DNA of 64,000 nt from Candidatus Melainabacteria bacterium (GTDB taxonomy: Bacteria > Cyanobacteriota > Vampirovibrionia > 2-02-FULL-35-15), in contig JAHFBF010000004.1 in assembly GCA_023250195.1 (NCBI GenBank), positions 5,675-69,674 on the forward strand, given 5' to 3'. Below are positions 9,467 through 52,514 of this stretch, in pieces (within the stretch, counting starts at the first letter, position 1; each line of letters starts with the position of its first letter). The position numbers and the translations under genes were made by a program. The notes under the pieces were generated by a model. It did not search any database and was not told where the DNA came from. It was given only the letters and a program-made list of their open reading frames with translations.

Positions 9467-9754
9467 AATAACCTCTCCACTATTTGGAGGATAAAAGTAA
9501 CTACTCAGCTAGTGTAACTTAACCTACAATAATAAATTAAGGGATACTCTGCAAAGCCCGCCAAGCAACTTAGGAGGAAGGATGGTGGTGAATAATTACG
9601 GATAAAAACTCTAAATTTCTAATTAACTGGTGTGATAAATCTCATAAAAAGACATTAAATCTGGATAATTTAACCTGAGATTAACTTAACTCTGGTTAGT
9701 TTTTTAATGGTTTTGTCTATATAGTAGTTGGTCACCTTGTAAGGAGATTTCAAT

Positions 9755-10009
9755 ATGCTAAATGTAATTAAAGCATTTTTGGTAACAGTTTTAGTTTTTT
9801 CTATTTGCAGTCTAAGCTCATATGCAACTTCACCGGAAGAATACTGTAAAATCCATGAAGATAGTGGTGCCCCCGGTGTATGCACTACCCGTGGAAACTG
9901 TGTAGTACTAACCACAAATCTTGGGATAGACGAGTGCAAATTGTGTACTGATGGTGGCTGCGAATTAGTTGATAATTGTGACCAATGTCCTGAATCTGAA
10001 CCTGAATAA
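9755..10009 (+). CDS. small secreted Cys-rich peptide (84 aa, about 10 Cys)
   Basis: RBS taaggagatttcaatATG; signal peptide MLNVIKAFLVTVLVFSICSLSSYA; mature region CKIHEDSGAPGVCTTRGNCVV...CKLCTDGGCELVDNCDQCPESEPE. Confidence 0.5.
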   Translation: MLNVIKAFLVTVLVFSICSLSSYATSPEEYCKIHEDSGAPGVCTTRGNCVVLTTNLGIDECKLCTDGGCELVDNCDQCPESEPE

Positions 10010-10023
10010 AACAAGTCTTAAAA

Positions 10024-10320
10024 ATGAATTTTTTATTTCATATCATTTTGCTAATTATGCTTTGCATGGTACTTAATCCTGTGTTTGCAAATGATCCGGA
10101 TGCTCCTGATATAAATGTGGAAGATAATGCTTTAAGCTCTGATGAACAAAATGATGAAATAACTGATGATGAAGACCAGGACAAAGAATCTTCTTTTAAA
10201 GAGAGAAAAAAACATAAGAAGAAAAAAGAAAAGAAAGTAAATCATGCAAGTCTAAGACCAGGACAGGATAGCGATAAAGATATTATTTTAGAGCTAGATG
10301 AAAAACTAATTGACAATTAA
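10024..10320 (+). CDS. secreted acidic/lysine-rich low-complexity protein
   Basis: A signal peptide, then DPDAPDINVEDNALSSDEQNDEITDDEDQDKE...KKHKKKKEKK. The RBS is weak. Confidence 0.35.
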   Translation: MNFLFHIILLIMLCMVLNPVFANDPDAPDINVEDNALSSDEQNDEITDDEDQDKESSFKERKKHKKKKEKKVNHASLRPGQDSDKDIILELDEKLIDN

Positions 10321-10352
10321 AGAATTTTTATAATTCTCAACTATCAATTTTA

Positions 10353-11042
10353 TTAGTCTCTATTCCTGCTTCCAAATAAAATCATTGCCCAGCGAATAAT
10401 TTCAATCAAGCTAAACAGCGCAGCTGCAATATAGGTAAAAGCACATGCCTGTAAAATTTTCTTTGCATTTTCTTTCTCATCTGAAGAAATATAACCAGAG
10501 CCCTCCAGCACTGGTACAGCGCGGGCAAAGCTTGCATCAAGCTCAACAGGTAACGTTATTACCTGAAAAAAGAAAATACCAATGTACATAAACAACCCAA
10601 TCATTGCTGTTAATTTCCAGATTGGACTTGCTAAAAATGCAGTAAGCATTATGCTAAACATAAGCAACATTGGACCAAACTGACAAATTTGAATAACTGG
10701 AGCAACTGCAGTTCTCAATCTCATAAACCCATAATTTTCAGCATCCTGAATAGCATGACCACATTCATGTGCAGCAACAGTTACTGCAGCAAGTGATGTT
10801 CCATTATAAAAATTTTCAGATAATCTTACTGACTTACTCTGTGGATCATAATGGTCACCTTGACTTGTCGCTTCAACGGTAACTGCATTAAGTCCGTGTC
10901 TGTTTAATATTTCCTTTGCAATTTCTGCACCGGTTCTTCCAATTGAGGAAGGTTCATTTGAATATTTATTTAAGATACTTCTAACCCATAGTTGAGGAAG
11001 AATTATTAAAGCTATTCCAGTTATCCATAATAATGTCAGCAT
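10353..11042 (-). CDS. membrane zinc metallopeptidase (YugP-like, PF04298-type)
   Basis: HExxH motif AAHECGHAIQ, TM segments at both ends, and overall YugP-like architecture. Confidence 0.65.
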   Translation of the reverse strand: MLTLLWITGIALIILPQLWVRSILNKYSNEPSSIGRTGAEIAKEILNRHGLNAVTVEATSQGDHYDPQSKSVRLSENFYNGTSLAAVTVAAHECGHAIQDAENYGFMRLRTAVAPVIQICQFGPMLLMFSIMLTAFLASPIWKLTAMIGLFMYIGIFFFQVITLPVELDASFARAVPVLEGSGYISSDEKENAKKILQACAFTYIAAALFSLIEIIRWAMILFGSRNRD

Positions 11043-11082
11043 TTTTGTGAACCTCCATAGTTATATTATACGCAATAACATG

Positions 11083-12036
11083 TCATTCAAACCTGTCCCC
11101 AATTTTTATTCTGGCCCCATTCACCCAATCTTTAGCATTAATGATTTCTTTGTTTTCTGATTGTAATTTGTATATGTTTATGAAATCGTCACTTGTTTTT
11201 ACCTTTAGAGAATTAGAAATTTCTACAATCGTTCCGGGAGGAATATTTTGTGAATTCGCCACAGTAGAGTCGTTGCATGCAACGACTCTACTATCCCAAA
11301 TCTTTATTACCTTCCCATTGAAATGTGTAAACGCTGAAGGCCATGGCTGCAGTCCGCGAATTTGATTGTGAATTTTTTCTGAATTTTGATTCCAGTCTAT
11401 CAATCCAAGTTCTTTTTTTAACATTGGTGCTTTTGTTGCTTTTGAGTTGTCCTGTGGAATAAATTTTGCTTTTTTATCTCTTACAAGTTCAAGTGCTTTA
11501 ATAAGAGCACCTGCTCCAAGTAGACTTAAATTTTTTGACAGATCGATTGAAGTTTCATTTTCATCTATATTATATTTTTCCTGAAGAATTACAGGGCCTG
11601 AATCTAAACCAAGTTCTGTTTTCATAATTGATATGCCTGTTTCTTTTTCACCATTTAAAATTGCCCAGTTGATTGGAGCTGCCCCCCTGTATTTTGGTAA
11701 AAGAGATGCATGAACATTAATAGCTCCATCCGGAGTAATATTTAAGATTTCTTCGGATAATATTTGTCCAAATGCACAAGTTATTAAAACATCCGGCTTT
11801 AGTTCTTTTATTTTTTGTATAACTTCTGATTCTTTTGAAATTCTCCTGCACTGCAAAATTGGTAAGCTCTTTTGAAGCGCTAATTTTTTTATTGGTGGCT
11901 CCTGTACTTTTTTCCCACGACCAGCTTCTTTGTCAGTTTGAGTACAGATAGCAAGCACCTGAACCCATGGGGTTTTTAATAAAGTTTCTAACGGAGCAAC
12001 TGCAAACTCTGGTGTACCTAAAAAAATTGTTTTCAT
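11083..12036 (-). CDS. fmt: methionyl-tRNA formyltransferase
   Basis: MKTIFLGTPEFAVAPLETLL N-terminus, formyltransferase core HASLLPKYRGAAPINWAI, and a C-terminal Fmt domain. Confidence 0.9.
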   Translation of the reverse strand: MKTIFLGTPEFAVAPLETLLKTPWVQVLAICTQTDKEAGRGKKVQEPPIKKLALQKSLPILQCRRISKESEVIQKIKELKPDVLITCAFGQILSEEILNITPDGAINVHASLLPKYRGAAPINWAILNGEKETGISIMKTELGLDSGPVILQEKYNIDENETSIDLSKNLSLLGAGALIKALELVRDKKAKFIPQDNSKATKAPMLKKELGLIDWNQNSEKIHNQIRGLQPWPSAFTHFNGKVIKIWDSRVVACNDSTVANSQNIPPGTIVEISNSLKVKTSDDFINIYKLQSENKEIINAKDWVNGARIKIGDRFE

Positions 12037-12252
12037 TTCAAATTCCTTAACCCAAGGTCTTAATTATAGATTTACTTATCACAATGTGCAAACTTTGAAG
12101 AAATGTTAACAAAAGAGAAGGTTAAATATTATTTTTTCATAAATTTACTTATTTAAAATGCCCTCCTACAAAGATAATAAGTACTAATTAGACAAGCGGA
12201 AACAATTTCAGAAATCAATATATTTTTGGAGATTTAATAAGCATTTAAAATT

Positions 12253-13332
12253 ATGTCACCATCTACAGCTATTGGTTCAGGGATAAGAGGAGCTCCTCCC
12301 GGGACTTCAAATGGCCTTGTATCACAAAGAGATAATTTCAAAGAAGGAGAAGTTCTTCATAAACCCCTTCAGAAATTTTTTAAAGAGGTAAATGGAGCAC
12401 CGCTTAAAGTTACAAAAGCTGTTTGGGGACTGACTCCTATCATTCAGGCAATTGGACTTGTAAATGAAAGTGCCGGGAAATTAGCAAGGGCTTTTTATGG
12501 TGTTTGCTGGGCAATTGTTTACTCATGTTACAGACCATGGGCTGATGACAGACATTCATTGCCTGAACATGGCGGGTTAGAAAAAATTCCAGAAGGTTAT
12601 AGGACTCTTTATAATGCAAATGAACATTTCAGAGTAGGGATGGGAACCGCTGTCAGCGCTGTATATGGAGGCGGTGCACTTGGAATGCTGTATTCATGGT
12701 TTAAAGGTGATGATGATCTTTTTGATAAATCTGCCAATGTCTATCAGATGGGGATGCTTAATCAAAACCAGGTATTTGCTTCTATGAATTTTACAGAAGT
12801 TCTAAGAAGAAAATTTATCCATCCTGATCATTTGAAAGACTTTGAAAAAAGTGATAAAAACGCAAAAGCAAAAGTAGAAAAAATTGACTCTTATTTATTT
12901 ATTCCAAGTATTATTACAAGAGGTCTGGATACATGCAGATTATTTGGAGCAGAGTTTGGTGAAAACACTCAGAAGATTATAAATGTTTTCTCATATGCAG
13001 GTTATGGTACGTGGGCAACAAGGTTTGGATTACTTAAACAAACTGAAGACAAAGGTGTTAAAGGGGTTTTACTAGATGAACCAAATCCGGATTTACAGGG
13101 CAGTGTAAAAAAAGCTGATGATATTCTTTATAACACTCAAAAATACGGAGCAAAAGTTTTTCATACAGTTTTACCAGGACTTTCATGGTTATCAGCAGGG
13201 GCAGAATTATTTGGATTTAGAGAATTTGCAGAAAAATCATTCAAACTGGAAGGAATACTTGAGAGATTAAATCCTGCAATTGCCTCATGGTGTGTTAGAA
13301 ATACATGGATAAGATTGTTTGAGAAGAAATGA
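12253..13332 (+). CDS. hypothetical soluble protein
   Basis: 359-aa ORF with no signal peptide and no recognisable motif. It is followed by a perfect hairpin. Confidence 0.45.
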   Translation: MSPSTAIGSGIRGAPPGTSNGLVSQRDNFKEGEVLHKPLQKFFKEVNGAPLKVTKAVWGLTPIIQAIGLVNESAGKLARAFYGVCWAIVYSCYRPWADDRHSLPEHGGLEKIPEGYRTLYNANEHFRVGMGTAVSAVYGGGALGMLYSWFKGDDDLFDKSANVYQMGMLNQNQVFASMNFTEVLRRKFIHPDHLKDFEKSDKNAKAKVEKIDSYLFIPSIITRGLDTCRLFGAEFGENTQKIINVFSYAGYGTWATRFGLLKQTEDKGVKGVLLDEPNPDLQGSVKKADDILYNTQKYGAKVFHTVLPGLSWLSAGAELFGFREFAEKSFKLEGILERLNPAIASWCVRNTWIRLFEKK

Positions 13333-13337
13333 TAATT

Positions 13338-13370
13338 GTAGTAGAGACGAGGTAACCTCGTCTCTACTAC
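13338..13370. repeat. perfect palindrome GTAGTAGAGACGAGGTAACCTCGTCTCTACTAC (terminator-like hairpin; a copy of the small palindromic element)
   Basis: 15-bp stem, 2-nt loop, no T-tract. The 19-bp core agacgaggtaacctcgtct recurs inside the CDS at 14942-14968. Confidence 0.6.
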
Positions 13371-13420
13371 AGACCGTTGTATAATGTTTTTAAATGATCA
13401 ATCAATCTGGATATTAAACT

Positions 13421-14446
13421 GTGATAAAAAAAGAAATAGAAGAGATAATAAATAAAACAAATATAACAAAACCAGAAGATATTGATATTGAGATTTTAAA
13501 AAAGAGAGATTTTAAGTGGAGTAGAAAAAGTCTTCTATCCACCAGAGATTTACTAAAAGAAGAAATTGATCTTATTGTTACGAGTGCAAAGTCTTTTTCT
13601 GAAATTCTTGCAAGATCTGTTAAAAAAGTACCTACGCTTCGGGGCAAAGTAATAATTAATTTGTTTTATGAAAACAGTACAAGAACAAGATCCAGCTTTG
13701 AACTTGCAGGAAAATATTTATCTGGAGATGTGACAAATTTTTCTGTTTCTACTTCATCAGTAAAAAAAGGCGAAACTCTTCAGGATACTGCTCAGACACT
13801 TATACAAATGGGTGCAGATGCAGTAATTATCAGACATCAGCACTCAGGAATTCCATTTCAGCTTGCAAAATTAATGCCTGACAACATCTCACTGATAAAC
13901 GCCGGTGACGGAACAAACGAACATCCTACACAGGCTCTTTTAGATTTATACACAATAAAAGAAGTTTTAGATAATTTAAGCGGAAGAAAAATCGTAATTG
14001 TCGGGGATATTTTACACAGTAGAGTAGCCAGATCAAATATATGGCTTTTACAAAAAATGGGAATGGATATTCATGTGTGTGGTCCATCAACCCTTCTGCC
14101 AAAAAGTTTTGCAGATTATGGTGTAAAAGTCCACTGGAATTTAAAAGATGCTATTAAGGATGCAGACATAGTAATGGTGCTCAGGCTGCAGATAGAAAGA
14201 CAGACTAAAGGTTTAATTCCATCACTTGATGAATATCACAGATTGTTTGGACTTGATCATGAAAAGATAAAATTAGCCAGCAAGAACGTCAAGCTTTTAC
14301 ATCCTGGACCAATGAATAGAGGAGTAGAAATTACTTCAGAGCTTGCAGATGATGAGAACTATTCTTTAATTAACAAACAGGTTTCAAACGGGGTATCAAT
14401 CAGAATGGCTCTTTTATATCTGTTAATATTTGCGGCAGGGAGATAA
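13421..14446 (+). CDS. pyrB: aspartate carbamoyltransferase catalytic subunit
   Basis: STRTRSSFE, HPTQALLD and HPGP motifs. GTG start with an N-terminal extension of about 25 aa. Confidence 0.9.
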   Translation: MIKKEIEEIINKTNITKPEDIDIEILKKRDFKWSRKSLLSTRDLLKEEIDLIVTSAKSFSEILARSVKKVPTLRGKVIINLFYENSTRTRSSFELAGKYLSGDVTNFSVSTSSVKKGETLQDTAQTLIQMGADAVIIRHQHSGIPFQLAKLMPDNISLINAGDGTNEHPTQALLDLYTIKEVLDNLSGRKIVIVGDILHSRVARSNIWLLQKMGMDIHVCGPSTLLPKSFADYGVKVHWNLKDAIKDADIVMVLRLQIERQTKGLIPSLDEYHRLFGLDHEKIKLASKNVKLLHPGPMNRGVEITSELADDENYSLINKQVSNGVSIRMALLYLLIFAAGR

Positions 14447-27492: not shown

Positions 27493-27891
27493 ATGAAGAA
27501 GAATTTGTTTTTATTTTTACTAGTTGTTAGCTTCTTGTTTCCAATGACCACAATACAAGCTAAAGCTGATGGCGAACATGTCCTTAAACAAACTACAGGG
27601 GTTGTTTTAGGAGTTGGGATAGGACCAGTTGTCGGTGCAATGAGAGGCTTTGTAAAAGGCTGGCTTTGGGGCACAGATGCAACTGCTGAAGCACTTGGAA
27701 ATAAAGATGGTACCCCACATAAAATAATTGGATTTGCAACTGGTGGTGTACTTGGTGCAGCAGCTGGTGGAGTATCAGGCGTATTAATGGGTGCATATGA
27801 TGGCATCAAATACGGCTGGGACAAACCATGGTCAGCAGAAAACTTTAGCTGGGCAGGTAAGTTTACTGATTATGATCCATTCAAATGGTAA
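27493..27891 (+). CDS. secreted glycine-zipper (GxxxG-rich) small protein
   Basis: RBS ataaggagtaaaatATG; signal peptide; GVVLGVGIGPVVGAMRG...GFATGGVLGAAAGGVSGVLMGAYDG. Confidence 0.5.
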   Translation: MKKNLFLFLLVVSFLFPMTTIQAKADGEHVLKQTTGVVLGVGIGPVVGAMRGFVKGWLWGTDATAEALGNKDGTPHKIIGFATGGVLGAAAGGVSGVLMGAYDGIKYGWDKPWSAENFSWAGKFTDYDPFKW

Positions 27892-27949
27892 TAATTAGGG
27901 GTAGGTTTCAAACCTGCTTCTACTAGTAAATAAGAACTAAAGAAAAAAA

Positions 27950-27977
27950 AGCAAGCTGAAAGGCTTGCTTTTTTTAT
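27950..27977 (+). terminator. rho-independent terminator
   Basis: aagcaagcTGAAAGGcttgcttttttt has a GC-containing stem followed by a T-run. Confidence 0.7.
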
Positions 27978-28184: not shown

Positions 28185-28784
28185 ATGATAAGAAATTCAA
28201 TTTTTTTAATTGCTGTTATATCTTTACTTGTTCTGTATTCATCTAAAGACATTGCTGCTCAAGCAGCAGCCACTGTTCCTGTCAACGTTACTGTAAATGG
28301 AGCTTTGGTTATAACAGATGCTTCAAATGATTCAATGGCGGGTGCAAATCCAACTATAAATGTCAATTTATCAGTTACTCCTGATCTTGGTGCAGCTACT
28401 GTTACTGGTCAAGCAAACTTCAGAGTCCGTACAAATAGAAATGCATGGAGACTTACAGCTCAAAGGACTGTCTCTAATGCCGGTGGCACTGGACTTGCAG
28501 ATACAGACGTATCCTTAACGGTTGCAAAATCCGCTGGCTCAACAGGAAATGCAAATGCAGGAGCACTGGTGGCACCATTTACAGCCTCGACTACCTTGAA
28601 TAGTATTCCAACTGCAACCAGTGTAGATGTAGTAAGTGGAACTGCAAAAACATCAACTGCAAAAGATGGTGCAAACACAAATAATTATTTTCAGGTAAAC
28701 ACAACCTATGGAGTAGCACCAGACTTTTTCTACACACCGGGTACGTATAGTACAACAATTACATATAATTTAGTCTCACCATAG
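28185..28784 (+). CDS. secreted pilin-like protein, paralog 1 of 5 (putative fibre subunit)
   Basis: Signal peptide. Conserved blocks ATVPVNVTVNG.LVI.DA.ND, NFRVRTNRN.WRLTAQRT and C-terminal PDFFY.PGTYSTTITYNLVSP, the last resembling the G-Y-x-T-h-T-V terminal beta-strand of Csu/spore-coat-U-type pilins. Confidence 0.5.
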   Translation: MIRNSIFLIAVISLLVLYSSKDIAAQAAATVPVNVTVNGALVITDASNDSMAGANPTINVNLSVTPDLGAATVTGQANFRVRTNRNAWRLTAQRTVSNAGGTGLADTDVSLTVAKSAGSTGNANAGALVAPFTASTTLNSIPTATSVDVVSGTAKTSTAKDGANTNNYFQVNTTYGVAPDFFYTPGTYSTTITYNLVSP

Positions 28785-28865
28785 AAATAAATTCCTATTT
28801 ACTATCATTTTAGATCTCCGAAGTATTAAGACAGGAGCAAATCATCATAAGATTGGAGGTCTGAA

Positions 28866-28895
28866 ATGAAGATGATTGTTTTTCTATGGCTAGGA
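28866..28895 (+). promoter_or_regulatory. conserved motif copy 1 (GAAGATGATTGTTTTTCTATGGCTAGGAAA), possible leader peptide or regulatory site
   Basis: It is preceded by GGAGG at 7-nt spacing and could encode MKMIVFLWLGNN. Copies occur at 31909-31937 (direct) and 33664-33688 (inverted). Confidence 0.4.
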
Positions 28896-29061
28896 AACAA
28901 TTAATATCCACCCAGGATTTGCTCCTTGCTTTTAAGTTCAGGTGTTATTCCTAAATAAAAGAGTTTAGTACTAATATCCCTTTTTGTTTTAAAAATCTTT
29001 TTTAATAAGAAATCTGTGGAATGTAATTAAAGATCAGGTAACTGTTTCTAATTATTTTCCT

Positions 29062-31812
29062 ATGAAATCTTCTTTACAAAGAAAATATATTTCATTTGTT
29101 TTGTCTTTATTGACAAGCATTTGGTTTGTTTATGTTTTACCGGCCGCTTCCCAGCTTATATCAACCCCGGTAAAAAATAATTTACAGAATCAGGGGACAG
29201 GTCAAAATCCAGATGAGCAGAATGACAATAACAAAGCAACGCCTCTACTTGAACCACCGGAAGTTATACTCAATAATCAAAAAATAATATTTAACAGAAA
29301 ACCAATTTTTGATAATGAGGTATGGCTTTTCCCTCTTGAAGAAATTGCTATGAAATTACAGGATAAAGTAATCACAGATCTTGTAAGCGGGACAATTACA
29401 ATTCAAAGATCCAGGGGGAAATCAACTGTTCAGTTAAACATTAGAAATGGAATAGTAACCATAAATAACAGACCATTTAAGACATTGTTTGGATATAACA
29501 GAATAATTCCAGGAGCTGATTCACAAATGGTTCCAACAAGTGCACTTGTTATGCTTCTTGGTTTAACGTCAAAAGACAACGAAGAAGGGAAATTAATTTT
29601 AGTTAACACTGTTGGAGAAAGTAGTAATGCTGTTGGCACAGTACAACCGCTTCCCAGAAAAAATGTAAAAGATTTATTAGTAGATTACTTAACAATTACA
29701 AATTCATTTGATTGGCTGCAGAGCCAATCATTTTATACAAAAAAAACAGAGATAAACAGTGGCTTTCACAATGACAACTATGCAATAACTTCTGATTTTC
29801 TGGTAAAGTCAGGGACTAATACCCCATTAATTAATTTTGATACCGGTAATTTTTCATATTATAAAAATGCTTCTCCATTTCAAGTACATGTTGGTGATAA
29901 ACCCTTAAGTTTAGTAAAGTCACCTCTTATAGGTGGGGTTGTTATGCGTGGTCTACAGATTCAGACTGGAGGTCCATTATTAAAAGACAGCAAATTTGTA
30001 TTTGGAACCGGGTTTTTACCAACAAATGGAAAAATTTTAGGTAGAAATCTTTCATTTGTAAAATATGGAAGACTTGCAGAAGTTGCAGAATGGTCAACTT
30101 CACCAAATAAGCCATGGCAGTTTTCAATTGGGGAAGCTATTTACAACGATTCTATAATAAATCAACTTGTCAGATCAAAACAAAGTGGTGGCTTATTTGC
30201 ATTAAGTGCTACAAAAACAGGAAAATTTTTTGAAGGAGACTCTAACCTGGCATTTGGAATTACAAGTGACAAGGTTACAGGAAAAGCAAGTCAGGGTCCT
30301 GGTGGAGATATTTTAGTAAGACTAAAACCAAAAGACTGGATAAGCTTTTTTTCAAAAGGTGCCTATTACTCGCCCGGGTTCTTTTCATTATCAGGAAATC
30401 CTTTTTATCACGATAGAAACGAAGCAACCTTTGGATTAAATGTCGCTCCTCCAAGATCAAATATCGGAGTCAGTCATTCAGTAGGAAAATATAACTTAAA
30501 TTCCCAGAAACCAAACAACTATAGTGTTACAAATGTTTTTGCTTCAGCAACACCATTCAAAAATGGTCCAACCATATTATCAAGTTATTCAAAGAATGAT
30601 TCACAGGTGTCTTCCACAAGAGCTATTGACAACATACTATTCCCAATAAACATGACAAACATTTCTACAGTTGATTTCGAAACTTTAATCGAAAGAAGAA
30701 CCAATTCATTTTTTAGAACAAGCTTAATGAAAAACTGGAGAACTGTAAACTTTTCTTCCAGTGTAAATTATTTTACTTTTGCCGATGATAAACCTTTAAA
30801 ACTGACTGCGGTGGGAGGGCAGACGGTAACAAAATTCCTGACATATGATTTAAATATAAACAAATCAATTAATAGATTTGTTGGATTGCAGACATATCTG
30901 CAAGGAAGTAAATTATATAAGCAGGTAAGATTTGGAGTAAATGTTGGACCTCTTTTAGATAATAAATTAAACTTTTTATTGCAGACGGGTGCTCTTTTGC
31001 CGGAACAGGAAAGCCCCAGTTCACTTTATAGTTTGAATTTGAATTATCAAGTAAACAAAAAAACCCAGCTTAGTATGCGGTATGATAAAACAAAATTTTT
31101 GACATCTCTTTCAGGCATCTACCAATATAACCTGCGCGGAAAAAGTCCAGGTGCACTGTCTGAAATTAGAGAAGCACAGACTATTGGCAGAATAAAAGGG
31201 AGAGTTCTGGTACTTGAGGAAAATCCGAGAAAATCAACTGAGCAAAATAAAATTATCCTGCCTGGAACAACCAGAGAAAGAGGTGCTGAAAATATAAGAA
31301 TTCACCTCGGAAACTATACCATTACCACAAACAAAGACGGAACATTTGAATTCCCAAGTCTTACTCCGGATATTCATAGAGTTAGGATTGAATTCTCTGA
31401 CTTGCCTTCTTATCTAACATCAATTACTCCTGAAGCTGTAGATATAAAAGTAGAGGCCGGAAAAGAAACTAATTTTGATTTTATTCTTGCTTACTTTGGA
31501 ACACTGAGTGGAAAACTTCAGCTGGCTAATGAGCCTACAATGAAGCTGGAAGAAGAACCGGAGCTTCAGGATATCAGGGTTTACCTGGAAGGGACTGATT
31601 TTGAGACTCTAACAAATGTGGATGGTTCATTTGTCCTGGGAGATGTTAAACCAGGGAAATATAAATTAAAGGTTGACTCTGATTTCCTTCCAAAAGAATT
31701 GGAGATTGCTCCAAAAGATCTGGAAATTGAGGTTCGCGGTAAAGAAAAGGTAGAAAATGTACAACTTCCAATTAAATACAAAACCAAATCAGAAGAAATA
31801 AAAGTATTTTAG
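29062..31812 (+). CDS. large secreted beta-rich outer-membrane protein, putative usher-like pore with C-terminal carboxypeptidase-regulatory-like beta-sandwich domains
   Basis: 916 aa with a signal peptide. The long central region has alternating-hydrophobic beta-strand patterning (N/S/T/Y/F-rich), typical of an OM beta-barrel. C-terminal modules such as GRIKGRVLVLEEN..., YLEGTDFETLTNVDGSFVLGDVKPGKYKLKVDSD look like CarbopepD_reg/Cna-B-like folds. Confidence 0.35.
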   Translation: MKSSLQRKYISFVLSLLTSIWFVYVLPAASQLISTPVKNNLQNQGTGQNPDEQNDNNKATPLLEPPEVILNNQKIIFNRKPIFDNEVWLFPLEEIAMKLQDKVITDLVSGTITIQRSRGKSTVQLNIRNGIVTINNRPFKTLFGYNRIIPGADSQMVPTSALVMLLGLTSKDNEEGKLILVNTVGESSNAVGTVQPLPRKNVKDLLVDYLTITNSFDWLQSQSFYTKKTEINSGFHNDNYAITSDFLVKSGTNTPLINFDTGNFSYYKNASPFQVHVGDKPLSLVKSPLIGGVVMRGLQIQTGGPLLKDSKFVFGTGFLPTNGKILGRNLSFVKYGRLAEVAEWSTSPNKPWQFSIGEAIYNDSIINQLVRSKQSGGLFALSATKTGKFFEGDSNLAFGITSDKVTGKASQGPGGDILVRLKPKDWISFFSKGAYYSPGFFSLSGNPFYHDRNEATFGLNVAPPRSNIGVSHSVGKYNLNSQKPNNYSVTNVFASATPFKNGPTILSSYSKNDSQVSSTRAIDNILFPINMTNISTVDFETLIERRTNSFFRTSLMKNWRTVNFSSSVNYFTFADDKPLKLTAVGGQTVTKFLTYDLNINKSINRFVGLQTYLQGSKLYKQVRFGVNVGPLLDNKLNFLLQTGALLPEQESPSSLYSLNLNYQVNKKTQLSMRYDKTKFLTSLSGIYQYNLRGKSPGALSEIREAQTIGRIKGRVLVLEENPRKSTEQNKIILPGTTRERGAENIRIHLGNYTITTNKDGTFEFPSLTPDIHRVRIEFSDLPSYLTSITPEAVDIKVEAGKETNFDFILAYFGTLSGKLQLANEPTMKLEEEPELQDIRVYLEGTDFETLTNVDGSFVLGDVKPGKYKLKVDSDFLPKELEIAPKDLEIEVRGKEKVENVQLPIKYKTKSEEIKVF

Positions 31813-32017
31813 TACTAGGAGTAAGATTCTAATTTTTACTGTCTAGATATTTAATACCGATAGTACTTCTTGGTAACCAAAAAGGATTATTGAAAATAAC
31901 GGTCAATGATTTAGAAGATGATTTTTTCTTATGGCTAGGAAAAAGTTTACATTCAATTTATTTCTAAATCGAAATCTTTGTTTTAAATAACTTTTGGGTT
32001 TCTGAAAGGAAAACAAT

Positions 32018-32617
32018 ATGTTAAAACAAACGCGAGGTTTATTACTAGTATTACTTTTACTTTGTGCAAATTCAGTAGAATTGCCAGAGGTAAAAGCAGC
32101 AGCTTCTGTACCATTGGCTGTTACAGTTAACGGTTCACTCGTTATTTCTGATGCTGACAATGATGCAATGGCTGGAGTAAATCCTACAAAGAATGTTAAT
32201 TTGACTGTAACGCCTGATCTTGGACAGACAATACAAAGTGGAAATGCCAACTTTAGGGTAAGGTCAAATCGTTCAACTTGGAGGCTTACAGCTCAGAGGA
32301 CAGCTTCTGATGCTGGTGGTACGGGTATTACCGATGCGGATTTGCTGGTTGACATTGCAAAATCAGCCGGTTCAAATGCAAATGCAAATGCTGGTACATT
32401 AGTATCTCCATTTACCGGGCAAACCAACTTGTCAAGTATTACCACTGTAGCTGCTGTAGATGTTGTTAACGGAACTGCCAAAACATCATCTGCAAAAGAC
32501 AATGCTAATGCCAACAACTGGTTTCAGGTAAGCACTACATACAGCATCCAACCTGACTTTTTCTATGCACCGGGAACGTTTAGTTCTACAGTAACTTACA
32601 ACCTGGTTTCTCCATAG
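32018..32617 (+). CDS. secreted pilin-like protein, paralog 2
   Basis: Same conserved blocks as 28185..28784, with C-terminus TVTYNLVSP. Confidence 0.5.
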   Translation: MLKQTRGLLLVLLLLCANSVELPEVKAAASVPLAVTVNGSLVISDADNDAMAGVNPTKNVNLTVTPDLGQTIQSGNANFRVRSNRSTWRLTAQRTASDAGGTGITDADLLVDIAKSAGSNANANAGTLVSPFTGQTNLSSITTVAAVDVVNGTAKTSSAKDNANANNWFQVSTTYSIQPDFFYAPGTFSSTVTYNLVSP

Positions 32618-32627
32618 AAGTTGTTTT

Positions 32628-32706
32628 GTCATTCTGAACGAAGTGAAGAATCTCTGATTAATCGATAGCGGTTTATGAGATTCTTCGCCTTCGGCTCAGA
32701 ATGACA
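32628..32706. repeat. family-B MITE-like repeat between pilin paralogs 2 and 3
   Basis: gtcattctgaacgaagtgaagaatctc...gagattcttcgccttcggctcagaatgac. Confidence 0.65.
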
Positions 32707-32818
32707 TTTAGATCTATTGAAATATTTATACCAGTACATTATTTCAGTACTAAATTACCAGATAAATTTCAGAAACTTGTGGAAAATAAATATATGGAAC
32801 TAGCCTTAGAAAACATCA

Positions 32819-33421
32819 ATGAGATTAAACAAATCTTTTATCTTCACATTAATTGTGCTGTTGATTTTATTTACAGTACCAATAAAAACGTTTTCCCAAT
32901 CAGCAACAGTACCAATAAATATAAATGTTAACGGAACACTTACAATTTCTGATGCCTCAAATGATTCAAGCGCAGGTAAAAATCCAACCATAAACGTAAA
33001 TCTCTCTATAACGCCGGATCTTGGAGCTGCACCTGCTACAGGAAATGCAAACTTCAGGATAAGAACAAATAGATCTAACTGGAGACTCACTGCACAAAGG
33101 ACTTCTGAAGTTGATACAGGCCCAACAAACATTGTGGCAATGGACATAGCATTATTAGTTACTACTCAAGCCGGGACAAATGCAAATGCAATGGCTGGAA
33201 CACTTGTAGCTCCATTTACCGCAACAACAGACTTAAGCAACATATCAACAGCTGCACCGGTAGATGTAGTCAGCGGTACAGCTAAAACATCAACAGCAAG
33301 AGATAATACAAATACAAACAATTACTTCCAGATTAATACTCAATACAGCATTCTTCCTGACTTCTTCTTCCAGCCAGGGACCTGGAGAACAACCATAACC
33401 TATAATCTGGTTAGCCCTTAG
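32819..33421 (+). CDS. secreted pilin-like protein, paralog 3
   Basis: Conserved blocks, with C-terminus TTITYNLVSP. Confidence 0.5.
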   Translation: MRLNKSFIFTLIVLLILFTVPIKTFSQSATVPININVNGTLTISDASNDSSAGKNPTINVNLSITPDLGAAPATGNANFRIRTNRSNWRLTAQRTSEVDTGPTNIVAMDIALLVTTQAGTNANAMAGTLVAPFTATTDLSNISTAAPVDVVSGTAKTSTARDNTNTNNYFQINTQYSILPDFFFQPGTWRTTITYNLVSP

Positions 33422-33440
33422 AGAAGAAATAACTACATGC

Positions 33441-33517
33441 GTCATTGCGAGCCCGAAGCAATCTCCCTAACTTATTCACATTTGTGAGATTGCTTCGTCG
33501 CTAATGCTCCTCGCAAG
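33441..33517. repeat. family-C MITE-like repeat (GTCATTGCGAG...CTCGCAAGA) between paralogs 3 and 4
   Basis: gtcattgcgagcccgaagcaatctc...gagattgcttcgtcgctaatgctcctcgcaagaac. Confidence 0.6.
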
Positions 33518-33692
33518 AACATAATGTGTTTTATCCCCAAGGGTTTTCCTTAGACTTTTTAAATCAGCTACCCTTCTTAACTAAATATTATTTGAATACT
33601 GCAAAAATTGACGATGGTAGTATCTATGAACTAGACTTAAAAGACTATACTTTAAGTGTAGATTCCTAGCCAAAACAATCATCTTCCATTTC

Positions 33693-34307
33693 ATGACCAC
33701 TCAAAAAAACACAACAAGTTTTTTCTTAGTACTTATAGTCTCTTGTTGTGTTTTTTTTATTTCAGGTGATTTAACTGCAAGCTCAAATCAGGCTACCGTA
33801 CCCATTAATATCACTGTTGCCGGCAAACTAATTATTACTGATGCTGAAAATGATAATAACTCCAGTGCTAATCCAACCCTGAATGTGAATTTAAAATTAG
33901 TCCCTGATTTAAGCAATTCAACTGTTTCAGGTTCATCTTCAGTCAGAATAAGAACAAATCTGAATTCATGGAAGCTGACTGCTCAGAGAAGTAATTTAGC
34001 TGACCCACTGGTTAACATAGATCCCAGAGATATTGCACTAAATTTTACAACTCAGGCTGGGTCAAAAGCAAATCCAAATGCAGGAAAATTATTATCTCCA
34101 TTTAATAAAGCTGCTGATTTAAGCTACATATCAACAAACAGCCCTACAGATGTTTTAATCGGAGTAAGTAAAACCTCCCTTGATAAAGATCCTGAAAATA
34201 GAAACAACTGGTTTCAGCTTACATCAAACTACAGCGTTTCACCGGATTTCTTCTACGAAATCGGAGAATGGAATACAACTGTCAGCTATAGTTTAGTTAG
34301 TCCGTAG
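33693..34307 (+). CDS. secreted pilin-like protein, paralog 4
   Basis: Conserved blocks; more divergent; C-terminus TVSYSLVSP. Confidence 0.5.
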   Translation: MTTQKNTTSFFLVLIVSCCVFFISGDLTASSNQATVPINITVAGKLIITDAENDNNSSANPTLNVNLKLVPDLSNSTVSGSSSVRIRTNLNSWKLTAQRSNLADPLVNIDPRDIALNFTTQAGSKANPNAGKLLSPFNKAADLSYISTNSPTDVLIGVSKTSLDKDPENRNNWFQLTSNYSVSPDFFYEIGEWNTTVSYSLVSP

Positions 34308-34312
34308 ATTAT

Positions 34313-34466
34313 GTCATTGGAGGATATCTCAAAACTCTGTCTATGGAGATTAGCTATTTTTCTGACAAAATAGAAAGAGTGAAAGTAGCTTGTCATTCCC
34401 GCGAAAGCGGGAATCCAGTATCGGTAGCAGTCTTGTCTGGATTCCCTGGTCGAGCCAGGGAATGAC
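34313..34466. repeat. compound MITE (E unit plus D unit) between paralogs 4 and 5
   Basis: gtcattggaggatatctcaaaactctgtctatgg...gtcattcccgcgaaagcgggaatccag...ctggattccctggtcgagccagggaatgac. Its reverse complement matches 48759-48912. Confidence 0.7.
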
Positions 34467-34506
34467 ATTTATATTCAGCCATCATTCAAAGACTTATAAT
34501 TAACAT

Positions 34507-35061
34507 ATGACCTTTCCAAGAATTCTTTTTCTGTTTATATTTATTTTTTTAATCCTAGTATTTCCAATAAATTCATTGGCCTGTTTATCAATTACAGATG
34601 ATTTAAATACTCCAAACCCAATTATAAATGCAAGTTTTAGTTTTCAGCCTGATATAAATCCTTTTACTGATTGCTGGTCAGGTGCAATGAGAATTCGCAG
34701 TGATAAAAATGGCTGGAGACTTGTAGCCACGAGAGTTGGACCAAGTTCTTCAAATGCAGAAGGGAACTCTCAGGATAACGTTATGGCAAATGATATAACA
34801 CTTAATATATCAGTTCAGGCATTTGGGCAGGCAGATTCAAATGGTGCGATCTTAGTCTCTCCCTTTTCTTCACAGACAGAGTTATCTTCAATCCAATCCG
34901 GAACTTTTATAATATCGGGAGTTAAAAAATCAAGCAATAGTTGCTCTTCGTTCAATCCAAGCTACTACAAAGTTACCAAAAAACTTTGTTTGTTCCGGGA
35001 TTTTATCTTTAACCCCGGAGCATATAATGGTCAGGTATCTTATATTCTTATTAATCCATAA
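34507..35061 (+). CDS. secreted pilin-like protein, paralog 5 (most divergent, 4 Cys)
   Basis: It shares W.GAMRIRSDKNGWRLVATR and a C-terminal NPGAYNGQVSYILINP with the family. Confidence 0.45.
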   Translation: MTFPRILFLFIFIFLILVFPINSLACLSITDDLNTPNPIINASFSFQPDINPFTDCWSGAMRIRSDKNGWRLVATRVGPSSSNAEGNSQDNVMANDITLNISVQAFGQADSNGAILVSPFSSQTELSSIQSGTFIISGVKKSSNSCSSFNPSYYKVTKKLCLFRDFIFNPGAYNGQVSYILINP

Positions 35062-35098
35062 ACTAACAATGAGGGATATTAAATTTAAACTTAAAACT

Positions 35099-36079
35099 AT
35101 GAATAATTTAAACTTAAAGTTGTTTTCTTTATTAGCCAGCCTGATTATTATTTCTATATTTTGTGATCAGGCATTGGCCTGGACTGTTTCACCGGTCAGG
35201 TTTGAAGTAAAAGCACAAAAAGGGAAAGAGTACACTTTAACTTTTGCAGTTTTAAATGAAAGTCAGCTCTATCAAAAAAGGTTTGAGATTCAGACTGATG
35301 ACTGGATTATAAACAAAAATAATGACTTCCTTCGAAAAGCATTTACTGAGGGGGTCGAAAATAAACATTCAGCAACATCCTGGATAAAAGTTACACCAAT
35401 GCAGTTTGTAGTGCCGCCGGGAGAAACAAAAAATATAAGGTTTACTATTTCTGTCCCAAATGATGTTTCTGCAGATGGAGATTATACAGCAGGAATTTTT
35501 GTTGGGGAAAAAAATATTGAAAAGCCGCCAAAAGGGGAAAAAATAGTTCACATAAAGCAGGATACATTTATTGGAGTCATTGCCTATGTACAAATTGGGG
35601 AAGAAAAACATTCTGTCATTCTAAAAAATTTGAAAGTAAAATCAAAGTCGATTTCCAAAGGGTTAAACAAAGTTACAATCCTGCCTACTTATGAAAGTCA
35701 GGGGAATGTTCATGCAAGAGGACAAATACAAATAAAACTGGAGCCACTTTCAAAGATTGAGATAAAAGAAACAAAAGCAGAAGTTGAAAAGAGTAATGAT
35801 CAGGTAAATTTAAAAAACACAAATGCAATGTCTGTTGAACCTGCTCCAGAGGAAGAAGATAAGATAAAAGAACTTAATGCCGGTGAAGTAGTGATTCTTC
35901 GAGAATCAGAGGTTACCTACCCAATTGATTTTCCTTTCCCGGTTCCAGAAAACAGTGAATGGAAAATTACAGTAAAAACTGATTTTGGAGATTATGCTCC
36001 TGTTTTGGTTGGGACAAAAACTTATAAGGTGCCTTTGGCTGAAATGCCGGTAATATCGCCTAAAGAAAAGAAGAAGTAA
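35099..36079 (+). CDS. putative PapD-like periplasmic pilus chaperone with a C-terminal extension
   Basis: Signal peptide MNNLNLKLFSLLASLIIISIFCDQALA. VSPVRFEVKAQKGKEYTLTFAVLNESQ...WIKVTPMQFVVPPGETKNIRFTISVP resembles the PapD N-domain (VTPPxFRLxPGxxQxxRI). The listed track start at 35027 overlaps paralog 5. Confidence 0.4.
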   Translation: MNNLNLKLFSLLASLIIISIFCDQALAWTVSPVRFEVKAQKGKEYTLTFAVLNESQLYQKRFEIQTDDWIINKNNDFLRKAFTEGVENKHSATSWIKVTPMQFVVPPGETKNIRFTISVPNDVSADGDYTAGIFVGEKNIEKPPKGEKIVHIKQDTFIGVIAYVQIGEEKHSVILKNLKVKSKSISKGLNKVTILPTYESQGNVHARGQIQIKLEPLSKIEIKETKAEVEKSNDQVNLKNTNAMSVEPAPEEEDKIKELNAGEVVILRESEVTYPIDFPFPVPENSEWKITVKTDFGDYAPVLVGTKTYKVPLAEMPVISPKEKKK

Positions 36080-36140: not shown

Positions 36141-36620
36141 TTACACCCACAAATTTCCTAAATATTCTAATTTGCTAAACCCTTCGTTATATGCTTTTAT
36201 GATTTTATCTGCAACAGGAGGATAAAGAGTGATTTTTTCTAACTCAAGAATAGGTTTGTAAGCTGCGTCAGCTAACATGGGTTCATCACCTACTTTTAAT
36301 TCACCACCAAGAACTTCACCGGTTGCATAAATATTTATTATATGCCTGCTTCTGTCCGGTGCAATTGCTTCTGATAAAAATACAACTTTTCCAAATTTAA
36401 TATCCAGATTTGTTTCTTCTTTTAATTCTCTGACACCACAGGTTGCAAAGTCTTCACCATATTCAATTCGCCCACCTGGTAAAACCCAGTAATATCTATT
36501 TGCTTTTTTATGCTGAACAAGCAGTATTTCTTTTTTTTCATTAACAATAATTACTGAAACCCTGAAATTAGGTCTCTGCGGAAAACTTTTTCTAGTTCCA
36601 AAGTTAGGATTTGATGACAT
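36141..36620 (-). CDS. NUDIX hydrolase
   Basis: Nudix box LPGGRIEYGEDFATCGVRELKEETNLD. Confidence 0.8.
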   Translation of the reverse strand: MSSNPNFGTRKSFPQRPNFRVSVIIVNEKKEILLVQHKKANRYYWVLPGGRIEYGEDFATCGVRELKEETNLDIKFGKVVFLSEAIAPDRSRHIINIYATGEVLGGELKVGDEPMLADAAYKPILELEKITLYPPVADKIIKAYNEGFSKLEYLGNLWV

Positions 36621-50978: not shown

Positions 50979-52514
50979 TTACCATCCATACTTCGTATAA
51001 AAAGTTATCTTATTATTTGGATTCACCCAGTCAATTAATACTCCTTCATTATCCGGTAATGATCGGCTTTTAATTCCACCATTTGGTTCAATAAAAGCAG
51101 AAATTCCATTATTAGCAGCTATAATGACCGGTTTTCTGTTTTCAATTGCTCTGAATACTGCAAACGCAAGAAATTGCTGCTTTACACGAACATTAGAAAA
51201 CCAGCTTAAATCAGAAAGATTAGTTAATAATTCTGCACCCTCTATCACATGTTTTCTAACTATTGAAGGGAAAATCAATTCAAAGCAGATTGTTGTACCA
51301 ACCTTTCCAAATGAAGCATCGAACGGGATATTTTCTTCCCCTTCACCAAAACCTTCTCCTATAGAAAATGATGCCAGCTTTTTTAAAGCTTCAGGCAGAA
51401 GAAATGATAAAGGTACAAATTCTCCAAATGGTACAAGTCTTTCTTTTTCATAATATGAAAAGTTTTTTCCGGTTGAATTTGAGTAAACTGCACAATTTGT
51501 AAACTTTTCCTGATTTTTACAATAGCTTCCAAAAATCAGATCTGACTGCTTCTTTAATGCCAGGTTTTTGAACCACGCCTGGGTAATAGGATCATGGGTA
51601 AAGTTAGTCGGCAAAGCACCTTCTGGTGCAATAAATAAAGCCACTTCATTATTTTCAATTAATCCCCTGTAAGTTTTTTTTGCCAAATTTATATCGAGTT
51701 TTTCTCCACGCGTAATTTTTATAGGAAGATTTCCCTGTAAGACGCAAACTGTCTTAGAGCTTTCAGAAAATGATTCCTGATTTTTCCAGAACAGATATAG
51801 ACTAAAGGCAATACTCAAAAAAATCAAGCTGGATATAAAAGAAAAACAGACAACAATAGAAGTAAGTTTTCCCGGATCTCTTGGTATATATCGATTCCCG
51901 ATCTTTTCAATATTAAATAACCAGATAAAAAAGTCTGCAAAGGCTATATTGAAAAATACAATTAAAAAGCTTATTGAAACACTTCCAAAATATTCTGCAA
52001 TTTGAATTAAATAAAGATTCTTATACTGGCTGTACTCAATTAATGTCCATGGAACCCCAAGCAGACACTTACATGCTAAAAGCTTATTAAATACAAGGAG
52101 CCAGAGGAAAGTATTTATCAAAATGTAAAATATCCCACTTCTGTAAGGAGTGAGAGAAAATTTCTTTATAAGAAAGACGCTGGTGGCAAATAAAATAAAG
52201 AAAAATGAATTATAAAGACTGACTACAATAACAGCAAGAAAAGAAATCAGATAACTTTGAGAATCACTAAAACCTATCCAATTTAAAGGATGCATTGAAA
52301 ACAACCAGTGCAAATAGGACAGATTATACGCAAATCCAAAGAGAAAAGAATATATAACCACACCTTTTATTGTCTTTGAAGTGTTTATAATTATAAAAAG
52401 CGGGACAAGTCCAATCCAGGCAAGAAACCAGAGATCATACCCTGGTCCACTAAGCGATAAAATAAACCCACTGAGAAAAATTAAAAATGCTTTTGTAGAA
52501 GGACGATTAAACAT
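50979..52514 (-). CDS. lnt: apolipoprotein N-acyltransferase
   Basis: Polytopic N-terminal domain plus a C-terminal CN-hydrolase domain (CFELIFP). Confidence 0.8.
   Translation of the reverse strand: MFNRPSTKAFLIFLSGFILSLSGPGYDLWFLAWIGLVPLFIIINTSKTIKGVVIYSFLFGFAYNLSYLHWLFSMHPLNWIGFSDSQSYLISFLAVIVVSLYNSFFFILFATSVFLIKKFSLTPYRSGIFYILINTFLWLLVFNKLLACKCLLGVPWTLIEYSQYKNLYLIQIAEYFGSVSISFLIVFFNIAFADFFIWLFNIEKIGNRYIPRDPGKLTSIVVCFSFISSLIFLSIAFSLYLFWKNQESFSESSKTVCVLQGNLPIKITRGEKLDINLAKKTYRGLIENNEVALFIAPEGALPTNFTHDPITQAWFKNLALKKQSDLIFGSYCKNQEKFTNCAVYSNSTGKNFSYYEKERLVPFGEFVPLSFLLPEALKKLASFSIGEGFGEGEENIPFDASFGKVGTTICFELIFPSIVRKHVIEGAELLTNLSDLSWFSNVRVKQQFLAFAVFRAIENRKPVIIAANNGISAFIEPNGGIKSRSLPDNEGVLIDWVNPNNKITFYTKYGW

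Follow-up and report, generated by a model that had tools for sequence, protein, structure and literature searches.

Organization and Conservation of the Locus

In a 64,000-nucleotide stretch of DNA from Candidatus Melainabacteria (GenBank assembly GCA_023250195.1, contig JAHFBF010000004.1, positions 5,675 to 69,674; here called the window, in which positions are counted), a cluster of seven genes encodes five paralogous secreted proteins of about 200 amino acids (aa), a 916-aa protein with a predicted outer-membrane barrel, and a secreted helper protein, which together may assemble a surface fibre in the manner of chaperone-usher pili. According to the list of open reading frames (ORFs) of the window, the seven co-directional ORFs lie on the forward strand between a terminator-like hairpin and a convergent NUDIX ORF (36141..36620), in the order paralog 1 (28185..28784; 199 aa; signal peptide, N-terminal extension, and immunoglobulin (Ig)-like core), the 916-aa putative usher-like platform (29062..31812), paralogs 2 (32018..32617; 199 aa), 3 (32819..33421; 200 aa), and 4 (33693..34307; 204 aa), each with an N-terminal extension, paralog 5 (34507..35061; 184 aa), which is without one, and the helper (35150..36079, within a 350-aa ORF listed from 35027). 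The gaps between hairpin and NUDIX gene hold no additional ORF of at least 60 aa. The hairpin itself (27944..27975, no strand given) has a 13-bp stem with 4 GC pairs as well as an A run and a T run on its flanks; it resembles a bidirectional terminator that would end a 132-aa gene lying upstream and delimits the locus on its 5' side. The original prediction, made by a model from the letters of the DNA, had recognized both flanks correctly but counted eight co-directional genes between them; there are seven, the eighth being the 132-aa gene (27493-27891), which lies upstream of the terminator.

The G+C content of the locus (0.34-0.38) is the same as that of the remainder of the window, where the housekeeping neighbours are ispH, nuoH/I, and the genes for IF-2, NusA, GuaA, a Clp ATPase, and Lnt. 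The AT-rich, non-proteobacterial genome that had been surmised is indeed that of a member of Candidatus Melainabacteria, and every named homologue of the locus proteins likewise stems from a metagenome-assembled genome of Candidatus Melainabacteria, in most cases from groundwater.

The comparison covered L001 and L003-L007 (full locus or part of it; L006 is CAZRTB010000001.1), L002 (MFRN01000041.1), L008 (NZ_CP140100.1), L009, and L041. By tblastn, the five species-level genomes L003-L007 share order and chromosomal site with the window, that is, ispH, the 132-aa gene, paralog 1 (for which L003, L006, and L007 gave no match above the coverage filter), barrel, paralogs 2-5, helper, NUDIX, and nuoH; L001 holds the 3' part of the locus only, owing to a contig end. 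Orthologues of paralogs 3 and 4 were found in L001 and L003-L007, those of paralog 2 in L001 and L003-L005. As gene content and order are kept in five other genomes, the locus is no chance pattern. Its proteins are 30-80 % identical to those of the window and the flanking genes about 80-90 %, a faster divergence of the kind expected of surface-exposed proteins.

Two of the comparison contigs are peculiar. L006 is titled “uncultured Gammaproteobacteria bacterium” and carries the locus; its ispH, NUDIX, and nuoH are 78-81 % identical to the window, and the bin is probably mislabelled. In L002 (Melainabacteria RIFCSPLOWO2_02_FULL_35_15), positions 9357-10888 contain only paralog 5 and the helper gene beside NUDIX/nuoH, with unrelated genes upstream, and locus tags put the named subunit homologues on another scaffold, which could mean that the locus is really split, leaving the extension-less subunit beside the helper, or that the assembly is at fault.

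All three protein families are small. The paralogs, in the following also termed subunits, have 195 homologues among 5.8 billion clusters, and an exhaustive search with a hidden Markov model (HMM) returned only 34 clusters (50 % identity) among 1.84 billion representatives, none of them with a known domain. There are 27 homologues of the barrel protein and 68 of the helper, and a tblastn search of the subunit against plasmids gave no match.

The Secreted Subunit Paralogs

The five predicted secreted paralogs of about 200 aa indeed align over their full lengths, with 34 invariant columns and 33-63 % identity to paralog 1 (63 %, 62 %, 44 %, and approximately 34 % for paralogs 2, 3, 4, and 5, respectively). 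Of the three sequence blocks said to be common to them, ATVP.N.TVNG.L.ITDA, NFR.RTNR..WRLTAQR, and PDFFY.PGT..TT.TYNLVSP, all are present in the alignment, but the N-terminal ATVP.N.TVNG strand is missing from paralog 5. None of the five matches a Pfam or NCBIfam family, including the SCPU, DUF4402, and Fimbrial families that the original prediction had named for this check, and 10 distant relatives are likewise without any Pfam match. A profile of the family searched against the sequences of the PDB found no pilin, CsuA/B included, at E values up to 10.

The AlphaFold model, built on a 33-sequence alignment, shows a confident all-β domain (predicted local distance difference test, pLDDT, 90) that is closest to subunits of donor-strand-exchange fibres, namely the TLP-1b pond fibril, CfaB, FimG, CsuA/B, and TasA. 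An independent ranking by Foldseek placed CfaB of CFA/I pili first (E 5e-4), followed by TasA, CS17, cannulae, FimA/G, and CsuA/B. TasA/TapA of Bacillus and the archaeal TasA-like and cannula fibres, however, differ from the locus in that neither an outer-membrane platform nor a tandem-Ig helper takes part in their assembly, and they have no sequence relationship to the subunits.

In paralogs 1-4, the predicted signal-peptidase site is immediately followed by an extension of 12 residues with the pattern A(T/S)VP.N.TV.G, in which Val/Ile/Leu alternate. In paralog 1 this extension is AATVPVNVTVNG (aa 27-39), situated between signal peptide and Ig-like core, and the putative donor strand is given as aa 28-40, ATVPVNVTVNGAL (28266..28304, forward strand), with Val at every second position. 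The extension is as highly conserved as the core (0.78) and does not form a strand in the AlphaFold monomer model; its placement, like the groove geometry and the barrel strand count given below, was read solely from the secondary-structure strings of the models. Because it follows the signal peptide, alternates Val/Ile, is conserved at core level, and lies outside the monomer fold, it may well act as donor strand. Comparable arrangements are on record: in CsuA/B, the donor strand consists of alternating hydrophobic N-terminal residues (PMC4654587), and for TLP-1, a donor-strand-exchange fibre from pond water (CryoSeek, PDB 9ikk) in which the N-terminus is the donor strand, monomer predictions, including the predicted structure of its nearest homologue, were reported to leave this strand disordered and likewise outside the monomer fold (PMC11494351). 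TLP-1a/b thus resemble the subunits in having an N-terminal strand outside the predicted monomer fold, yet they share no sequence similarity with them; TLP-1 is a homopolymer with n+4 strand donation, and its nearest predicted relatives come from Flavobacteriales. The comparison with TLP-1 concerned the fibril protein.

Paralog 5 is without the extension in all eight loci examined (window and L001-L007). Its mature part, which contains four Cys residues, begins with Cys-Leu-Ser-Ile-Thr-Asp-Asp, and together with 7/7 orthologues it starts at this conserved Cys, where the first strand of the core is located. In chaperone-usher pili, tip subunits accept a strand and donate none, and by analogy paralog 5 is a candidate for the tip, that is, first-assembled, subunit. 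A lipoprotein was considered as well and rejected, as the residues before the conserved Cys misfit a lipobox and distant orthologues read A|QC, which fits signal peptidase I. Paralog 1, encoded by the first gene and apart from the other subunit genes, is for this reason the candidate major subunit.

The Predicted Barrel Protein of 916 Residues

The 916-aa protein consists of a signal peptide, a Cu_amine_oxidN1-like domain (aa 68-182, nt 29263-29607; Pfam match at aa 70-176, E 1.6e-7), a low-confidence linker, a predicted barrel region (aa 246-689, nt 29797-31128), and two C-terminal β-sandwiches (aa 709-906, nt 31186-31779), all read on the forward strand. Pfam assigns the sandwiches to CarboxypepD_reg-type domains (aa 751-809 and 832-872; E 1.3e-10 and 4.1e-9), just as had been anticipated. 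In the AlphaFold model, about 22 long and a few short strands lie between linker and sandwiches, and their β hydrophobic moment (1.02, versus 0.70 in composition-matched shuffles) is consistent with a membrane barrel; no α-helical transmembrane segment is predicted. The ushers FimD and PapC, which follow the plan N-terminal domain (NTD), barrel, and two C-terminal domains (CTD1 and CTD2), are among the top structural matches of the model, and the domain order of the 916-aa protein, as modelled, mirrors this plan, with about 22-24 strands in the model and 24 in the usher barrel.

Sequence comparison gives no such sign: neither the 916-aa protein (E up to 1) nor, in precomputed Pfam results, any of its 27 homologues matches Usher (PF00577), and a search of the PDB sequences with the family profile yielded no usher at E values up to 10. 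The protein had been called usher-like, a description that suits the modelled fold and architecture but extends neither to the sequence nor to the plug domain of ushers. A TonB-dependent receptor, proposed as the finding that would speak against an usher-like protein, is rejected, as no TonB plug (PF07715) or TonB_dep_Rec match appears at E values up to 1 and the CarboxypepD_reg domains are C-terminal, unlike the N-terminal ones of SusC-type receptors. Two low-confidence segments of the model, aa 227-238 and aa 541-552, rank with the best-conserved parts of the protein, the latter leading from a helical insert into the next strand; one may speculate that they are gating elements.

The Helper Protein and Its Relationship to WxLIP

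The helper most likely starts at an internal Met at nt 35150, because the conserved region of 35/35 homologues begins there with a signal peptide followed by AWTV(S/A)PVRFE, giving a protein of approximately 310 aa (mature). The C-termini of the family are short Lys/Glu/Pro-rich tails without a hydrophobic stretch and hence without a transmembrane helix. In Pfam, the protein of the window gives only sub-threshold matches, to WxLIP_PGBD (DUF916; 20.5 bits at a cut-off of 27.3 bits), ASH, and fn3_5, and in the 36-member family alignment WxLIP_PGBD is matched in 33/36 members (best E 1.5e-6). PapD-like/ASH-type Ig families (OCRL-like_ASH and Cep192 domains) match 18-28/36 members below threshold, PapD_N and PapD_C match none of the 36, and a search of the family profile against PDB sequences found no chaperone at E values up to 10.

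For comparison with genuine WxL systems, reference clusters were fetched from metagenomes by means of the published DUF916 motif NQIDKxxxYFDLK (PMC10599100), yielding 8 WxLIP and 16 small WxL proteins that were validated with Pfam (WxL E 1.7e-72; WxLIP_PGBD and WxLIP_HBD). With a narrow alignment of Melainabacteria sequences, hhalign gave the helper-WxLIP pair 80 % probability when the signal peptide was included, and 44 % and 2.5 % for domains 1 and 2 taken singly. After the alignment had been broadened by distant relatives from L041, L009, and a Deinococcus plasmid and restricted to mature sequences, the probability was 96.6 % (E 5.5e-10, 236 columns over both domains), cross-controls remaining below 1 %. 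By these profile comparisons, the helper is a homologue of the Firmicute WxLIP (DUF916-DUF3324) without the membrane anchor. Of its earlier description as PapD-like, the secreted tandem Ig-like protein stands, as far as the sequence goes, and the affiliation becomes specifically WxLIP rather than PapD. Within the literature searched, no publication links DUF916/WxLIP to diderms, outer-membrane barrels, or ushers.

This relationship hints at how the helper might work. Published AlphaFold complexes predict that WxLIP fills a gap in its WxL partner with a strand from a hairpin and thereby completes the β-sandwich (PMC10599100), which, if the prediction is right, would be mechanistically what the chaperones of chaperone-usher systems do. 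The most conserved stretch of the helper, GIFVGEKNIEKP followed by IKQDTFIGVIAY, aligns with the corresponding WxLIP region and is proposed to be the donated element; the conservation profile places the two segments at aa 156-167 and 176-187, counted in the 350-aa ORF and lying inside GIFVGEKNIEKPPKGEKIVHIKQDTFIGVIAY (nt 35492-35587, forward strand).

Comparison with WxL Complexes

The motifs of the subunits raise the question whether these are WxL proteins. By eye, their NFRVRTNR..WRLTAQR block resembles NYVQVTDNRGT..GW.L.VKQ of WxL, their YSTTITYNLVSP resembles YTT.LTW.L.D.P, and the motifs WRL and YNL are 106 residues apart, as compared to 96-120 (mode 104) in small WxL proteins. Membership was nevertheless rejected: hhalign against the 16 validated WxL proteins yielded 0.9-4.5 %, equal to negative controls, Pfam WxL (PF13731) matches neither the five paralogs nor the 10 distant relatives, and the Trp of the first motif is a Tyr in the relatives encoded on L041. 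The likeness is thus one of motif and spacing, a lead rather than a claim of membership.

On this evidence hinges a first rival explanation, according to which the locus encodes a diderm counterpart of the Gram-positive WxL/Csc complex, with small WxL-like proteins held non-polymerically by the WxLIP-like protein and the barrel serving as anchor or export pore only. The true homology of the helper over both domains argues for it, as do the motif pattern and spacing of the subunits and a relaxed profile alignment that is colinear through both motifs; moreover, real WxL clusters pair one WxLIP with several secreted paralogs of about 200-250 aa (PMC9772566, PMC10599100), comparable to the several paralogs of about 200 aa here. 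The control-level hhalign values, the missing Pfam WxL match, and the Tyr of the L041 relatives count against it. Firmicute WxL/Csc clusters typically comprise small and large WxL proteins, a WxLIP of the structure DUF916-DUF3324-transmembrane helix, and often an LPXTG protein, whereas the locus is without a large WxL protein, an LPXTG protein, or a membrane anchor on the helper and includes a gene for a predicted outer-membrane barrel in a diderm host. Finally, a non-polymeric complex offers no role for the conserved alternating extension or for its absence from exactly one paralog, and we consider this explanation unlikely.

Comparison with Chaperone-Usher Systems

The likeness to Csu, CupE, and CFA/I pili is one of organization, comprising several paralogous secreted Ig-like subunits of about 150-200 aa with an N-terminal alternating-hydrophobic extension, one subunit without it, one secreted tandem-Ig helper, and, going by the model, a large barrel in the outer membrane that is preceded by an N-terminal domain and followed by two C-terminal β-sandwiches. 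It does not extend to Usher, PapD, Fimbrial, or SCPU sequence membership, and the extension-less subunit is a single domain without a lectin domain. Pfam and NCBIfam searches with all proteins of the locus returned none of the SCPU, Fimbrial, DUF4402, Usher, PapD, or TonB families.

The original prediction had taken the locus for an archaic (sigma/Csu-like) chaperone-usher system, and an extremely divergent true member of this family (Csu/CupE-type) is a second alternative. Archaic systems have been reported in Cyanobacteria and Deinococcus-Thermus (PMC4654587), CsuA/B is among the fold matches of the subunit as FimD and PapC are among those of the barrel, and the sub-threshold OCRL-like_ASH/Cep192 matches of 18-28/36 helper members point in the same direction. 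However, Usher, PapD_N, PapD_C, SCPU, and Fimbrial are absent at E values up to 1 from the proteins of the window and from the Pfam results of 27 (barrel), 68 (helper), and 195 (subunit) homologues, and the family profiles miss CsuC/CsuD/CsuA/B, FimC/FimD, and PapC/PapD in PDB sequences at E values up to 10. The affinity of the helper is specifically to WxLIP, and the barrel is flanked by Cu_amine_oxidN1 and CarboxypepD_reg instead of usher domains, with no plug seen. The archaic assignment therefore had to be given up as stated, and even a far-diverged membership appears very unlikely to us.

Occurrence outside the Melainabacteria

The weakest subunit relative of the exhaustive search, P0248, led to L041, an unrelated metagenomic contig of 50 % GC on which it adjoins planctomycete-type extracytoplasmic function (ECF) sigma factor genes. 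L041 encodes two subunit homologues (HMM E 1e-12 and 3e-8), a helper homologue (HMM E 4.5e-23), an 893-aa protein composed of Cu_amine_oxidN1, barrel, and CarboxypepD_reg (HMM E 3.9e-19), and an additional small protein interrupted by the contig end. The order, subunit-subunit-helper-barrel-subunit, is unlike that of the window. The subunit, helper, and barrel families hence recur as a three-component module.

More remote helper homologues directly adjoin CarboxypepD_reg/SdrD_B proteins of 1090 aa in L008 (a plasmid of Deinococcus sp. AB2017081) and of 924 aa in L009. The latter protein has a Pfam match to a “pilus formation protein N-terminal region” (E 4e-5) and a weak OMP_b-brl match, and convergent genes in L009 encode proteins with terminal G.Y...L.Y.I strands; detectable homology is confined to the helper and the C-terminal domains of the 924-aa protein. 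On the Deinococcus plasmid, positions 7851-13536 form an unannotated cluster of four genes for a 293-aa secreted, a 272-aa WxLIP-like, a 181-aa, and the 1090-aa CarboxypepD_reg protein, which might represent another, strongly diverged form of this type of system. As a homologous locus this cluster was rejected, since the helper alone is detectably homologous, leaving an architectural parallel only. Both loci are parallels and no proof.

These comparisons also bear on a third alternative, in which the 916-aa protein is a porin or a tether between outer membrane and peptidoglycan, of the OmpM/SlpA type known from diderm Terrabacteria, and the small paralogs and the helper stay in the periplasm or envelope with neither export nor a polymer. 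As in OmpM/SlpA-type proteins, an N-terminal non-barrel domain precedes the barrel, but this domain is no SLH domain, of which the 916-aa protein has none. Furthermore, the three families of barrel, subunit, and helper are inherited together in different phyla and with differing gene order, the equivalent of the barrel protein in L009 carries a pilus-formation N-terminal domain, and the divergence of the locus proteins relative to their flanks is typical of surface-exposed and not of housekeeping envelope proteins. We attach little probability to this explanation.

A Proposed Pathway of Fibre Assembly

The reading that we favour, and to which we would give an even chance, is that the locus directs the assembly of a surface fibre on the chaperone-usher principle with components from no described chaperone-usher family. 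All seven proteins would be exported by Sec, and the 916-aa protein would insert into the outer membrane as a barrel of roughly 22-24 strands, with its N-terminal domain and two C-terminal β-sandwiches taking the places of the usher NTD, CTD1, and CTD2. In the periplasm, the soluble WxLIP-like helper would bind each newly exported subunit and itself supply the strand needed to complete the Ig-like fold. At the barrel, the alternating hydrophobic extension (ATVP.N.TVNG) of the next subunit would then displace the helper strand, that is, undergo donor-strand exchange, so that the fibre would grow from its base and be pushed outward through the barrel. Paralog 5, presumably acceptor-only because it has no extension, would enter first and end up as the tip of the fibre; the stalk would consist mainly of paralog 1, and adaptors or minor subunits might be provided by paralogs 2-4. 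The resulting fibre may conceivably function in adhesion or biofilm formation.

Several points weigh against this proposal. The barrel model is of medium confidence (mean pLDDT 65, strands mostly 70-85) and shows no usher-type plug domain but only a helical insert of approximately 35 residues (aa 513-546). No sequence signal ties any of the components to ushers, PapD chaperones, or known pilins, and the WxLIP proteins, the closest characterized relatives of the helper, have been described in a non-polymeric cell-wall complex and not in a pilus.

Further Features of the Window

The 132-aa gene upstream of the hairpin (forward strand) encodes a secreted Gly-rich protein with weak Gly-zipper/Romo1-type matches. 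In all related genomes the gene directly precedes the locus, and two of them have it in duplicate; the terminator separates it from the locus, and a functional connection is conceivable. Elsewhere in the window, the gene for Lnt (apolipoprotein N-acyltransferase; 50979-52514, reverse strand) fits a diderm envelope with triacylated lipoproteins.

An intergenic element of 30-45 nt with the core GAAGATGATT.TTT..TGGCTAGGAA occurs in three copies within the locus, 3' of paralog 1 (28868-28910, forward), 3' of the barrel gene (31914-31955, forward), and, inverted, just 5' of paralog 4 (33663-33694). It has no copy elsewhere in the window, was not found in this form in related genomes, and may have a regulatory function or represent a small repeat. 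Furthermore, a perfect 16-nt inverted repeat (33703-33718/33742-33757, 23-nt spacer) overlaps the first codons of paralog 4 in its signal-peptide region, and a 17-nt inverted repeat (33454-33470/33481-33497, 88 % complementary, 10 nt between the arms) lies just 3' of paralog 3; both could form RNA structures that set subunit stoichiometry.

Implications

To our knowledge, chaperone-usher pili are known almost only from Proteobacteria, where they are recognized by three protein families, and we know of no description of such a surface fibre in Melainabacteria. The same logic realized with other families, or with families that have diverged past detection, would extend the chaperone-usher principle to deep-branching diderms. 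A bolder claim, which we advance tentatively and regard as doubtful, is that the locus represents a fourth, previously unrecognized chaperone-usher-type pathway in diderms outside the Proteobacteria, with a soluble WxLIP homologue in the part of the “chaperone”. If true, the pathway would extend over the Melainabacteria, the lineage behind the 50 % GC contig L041, and, probably, relatives from Deinococcus and elsewhere, and the Firmicute WxL/WxLIP clusters and this system would share one ancestral strand-complementation machine, of which one version has an outer-membrane platform and the other has none. Freshwater fibres of the TLP-1 kind could then originate from loci of this type.

In enterococci, listeriae, and lactobacilli, WxLIP/DUF916 proteins play an important part in adhesion, by a mechanism that is poorly understood, and the locus suggests a testable role for them as strand-donating chaperones. 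It likewise suggests what kind of gene cluster may lie behind TLP-1 and other orphan fibrils from the environment, and the three co-inherited families of subunit, helper, and barrel constitute a signature by which such loci may be searched for.

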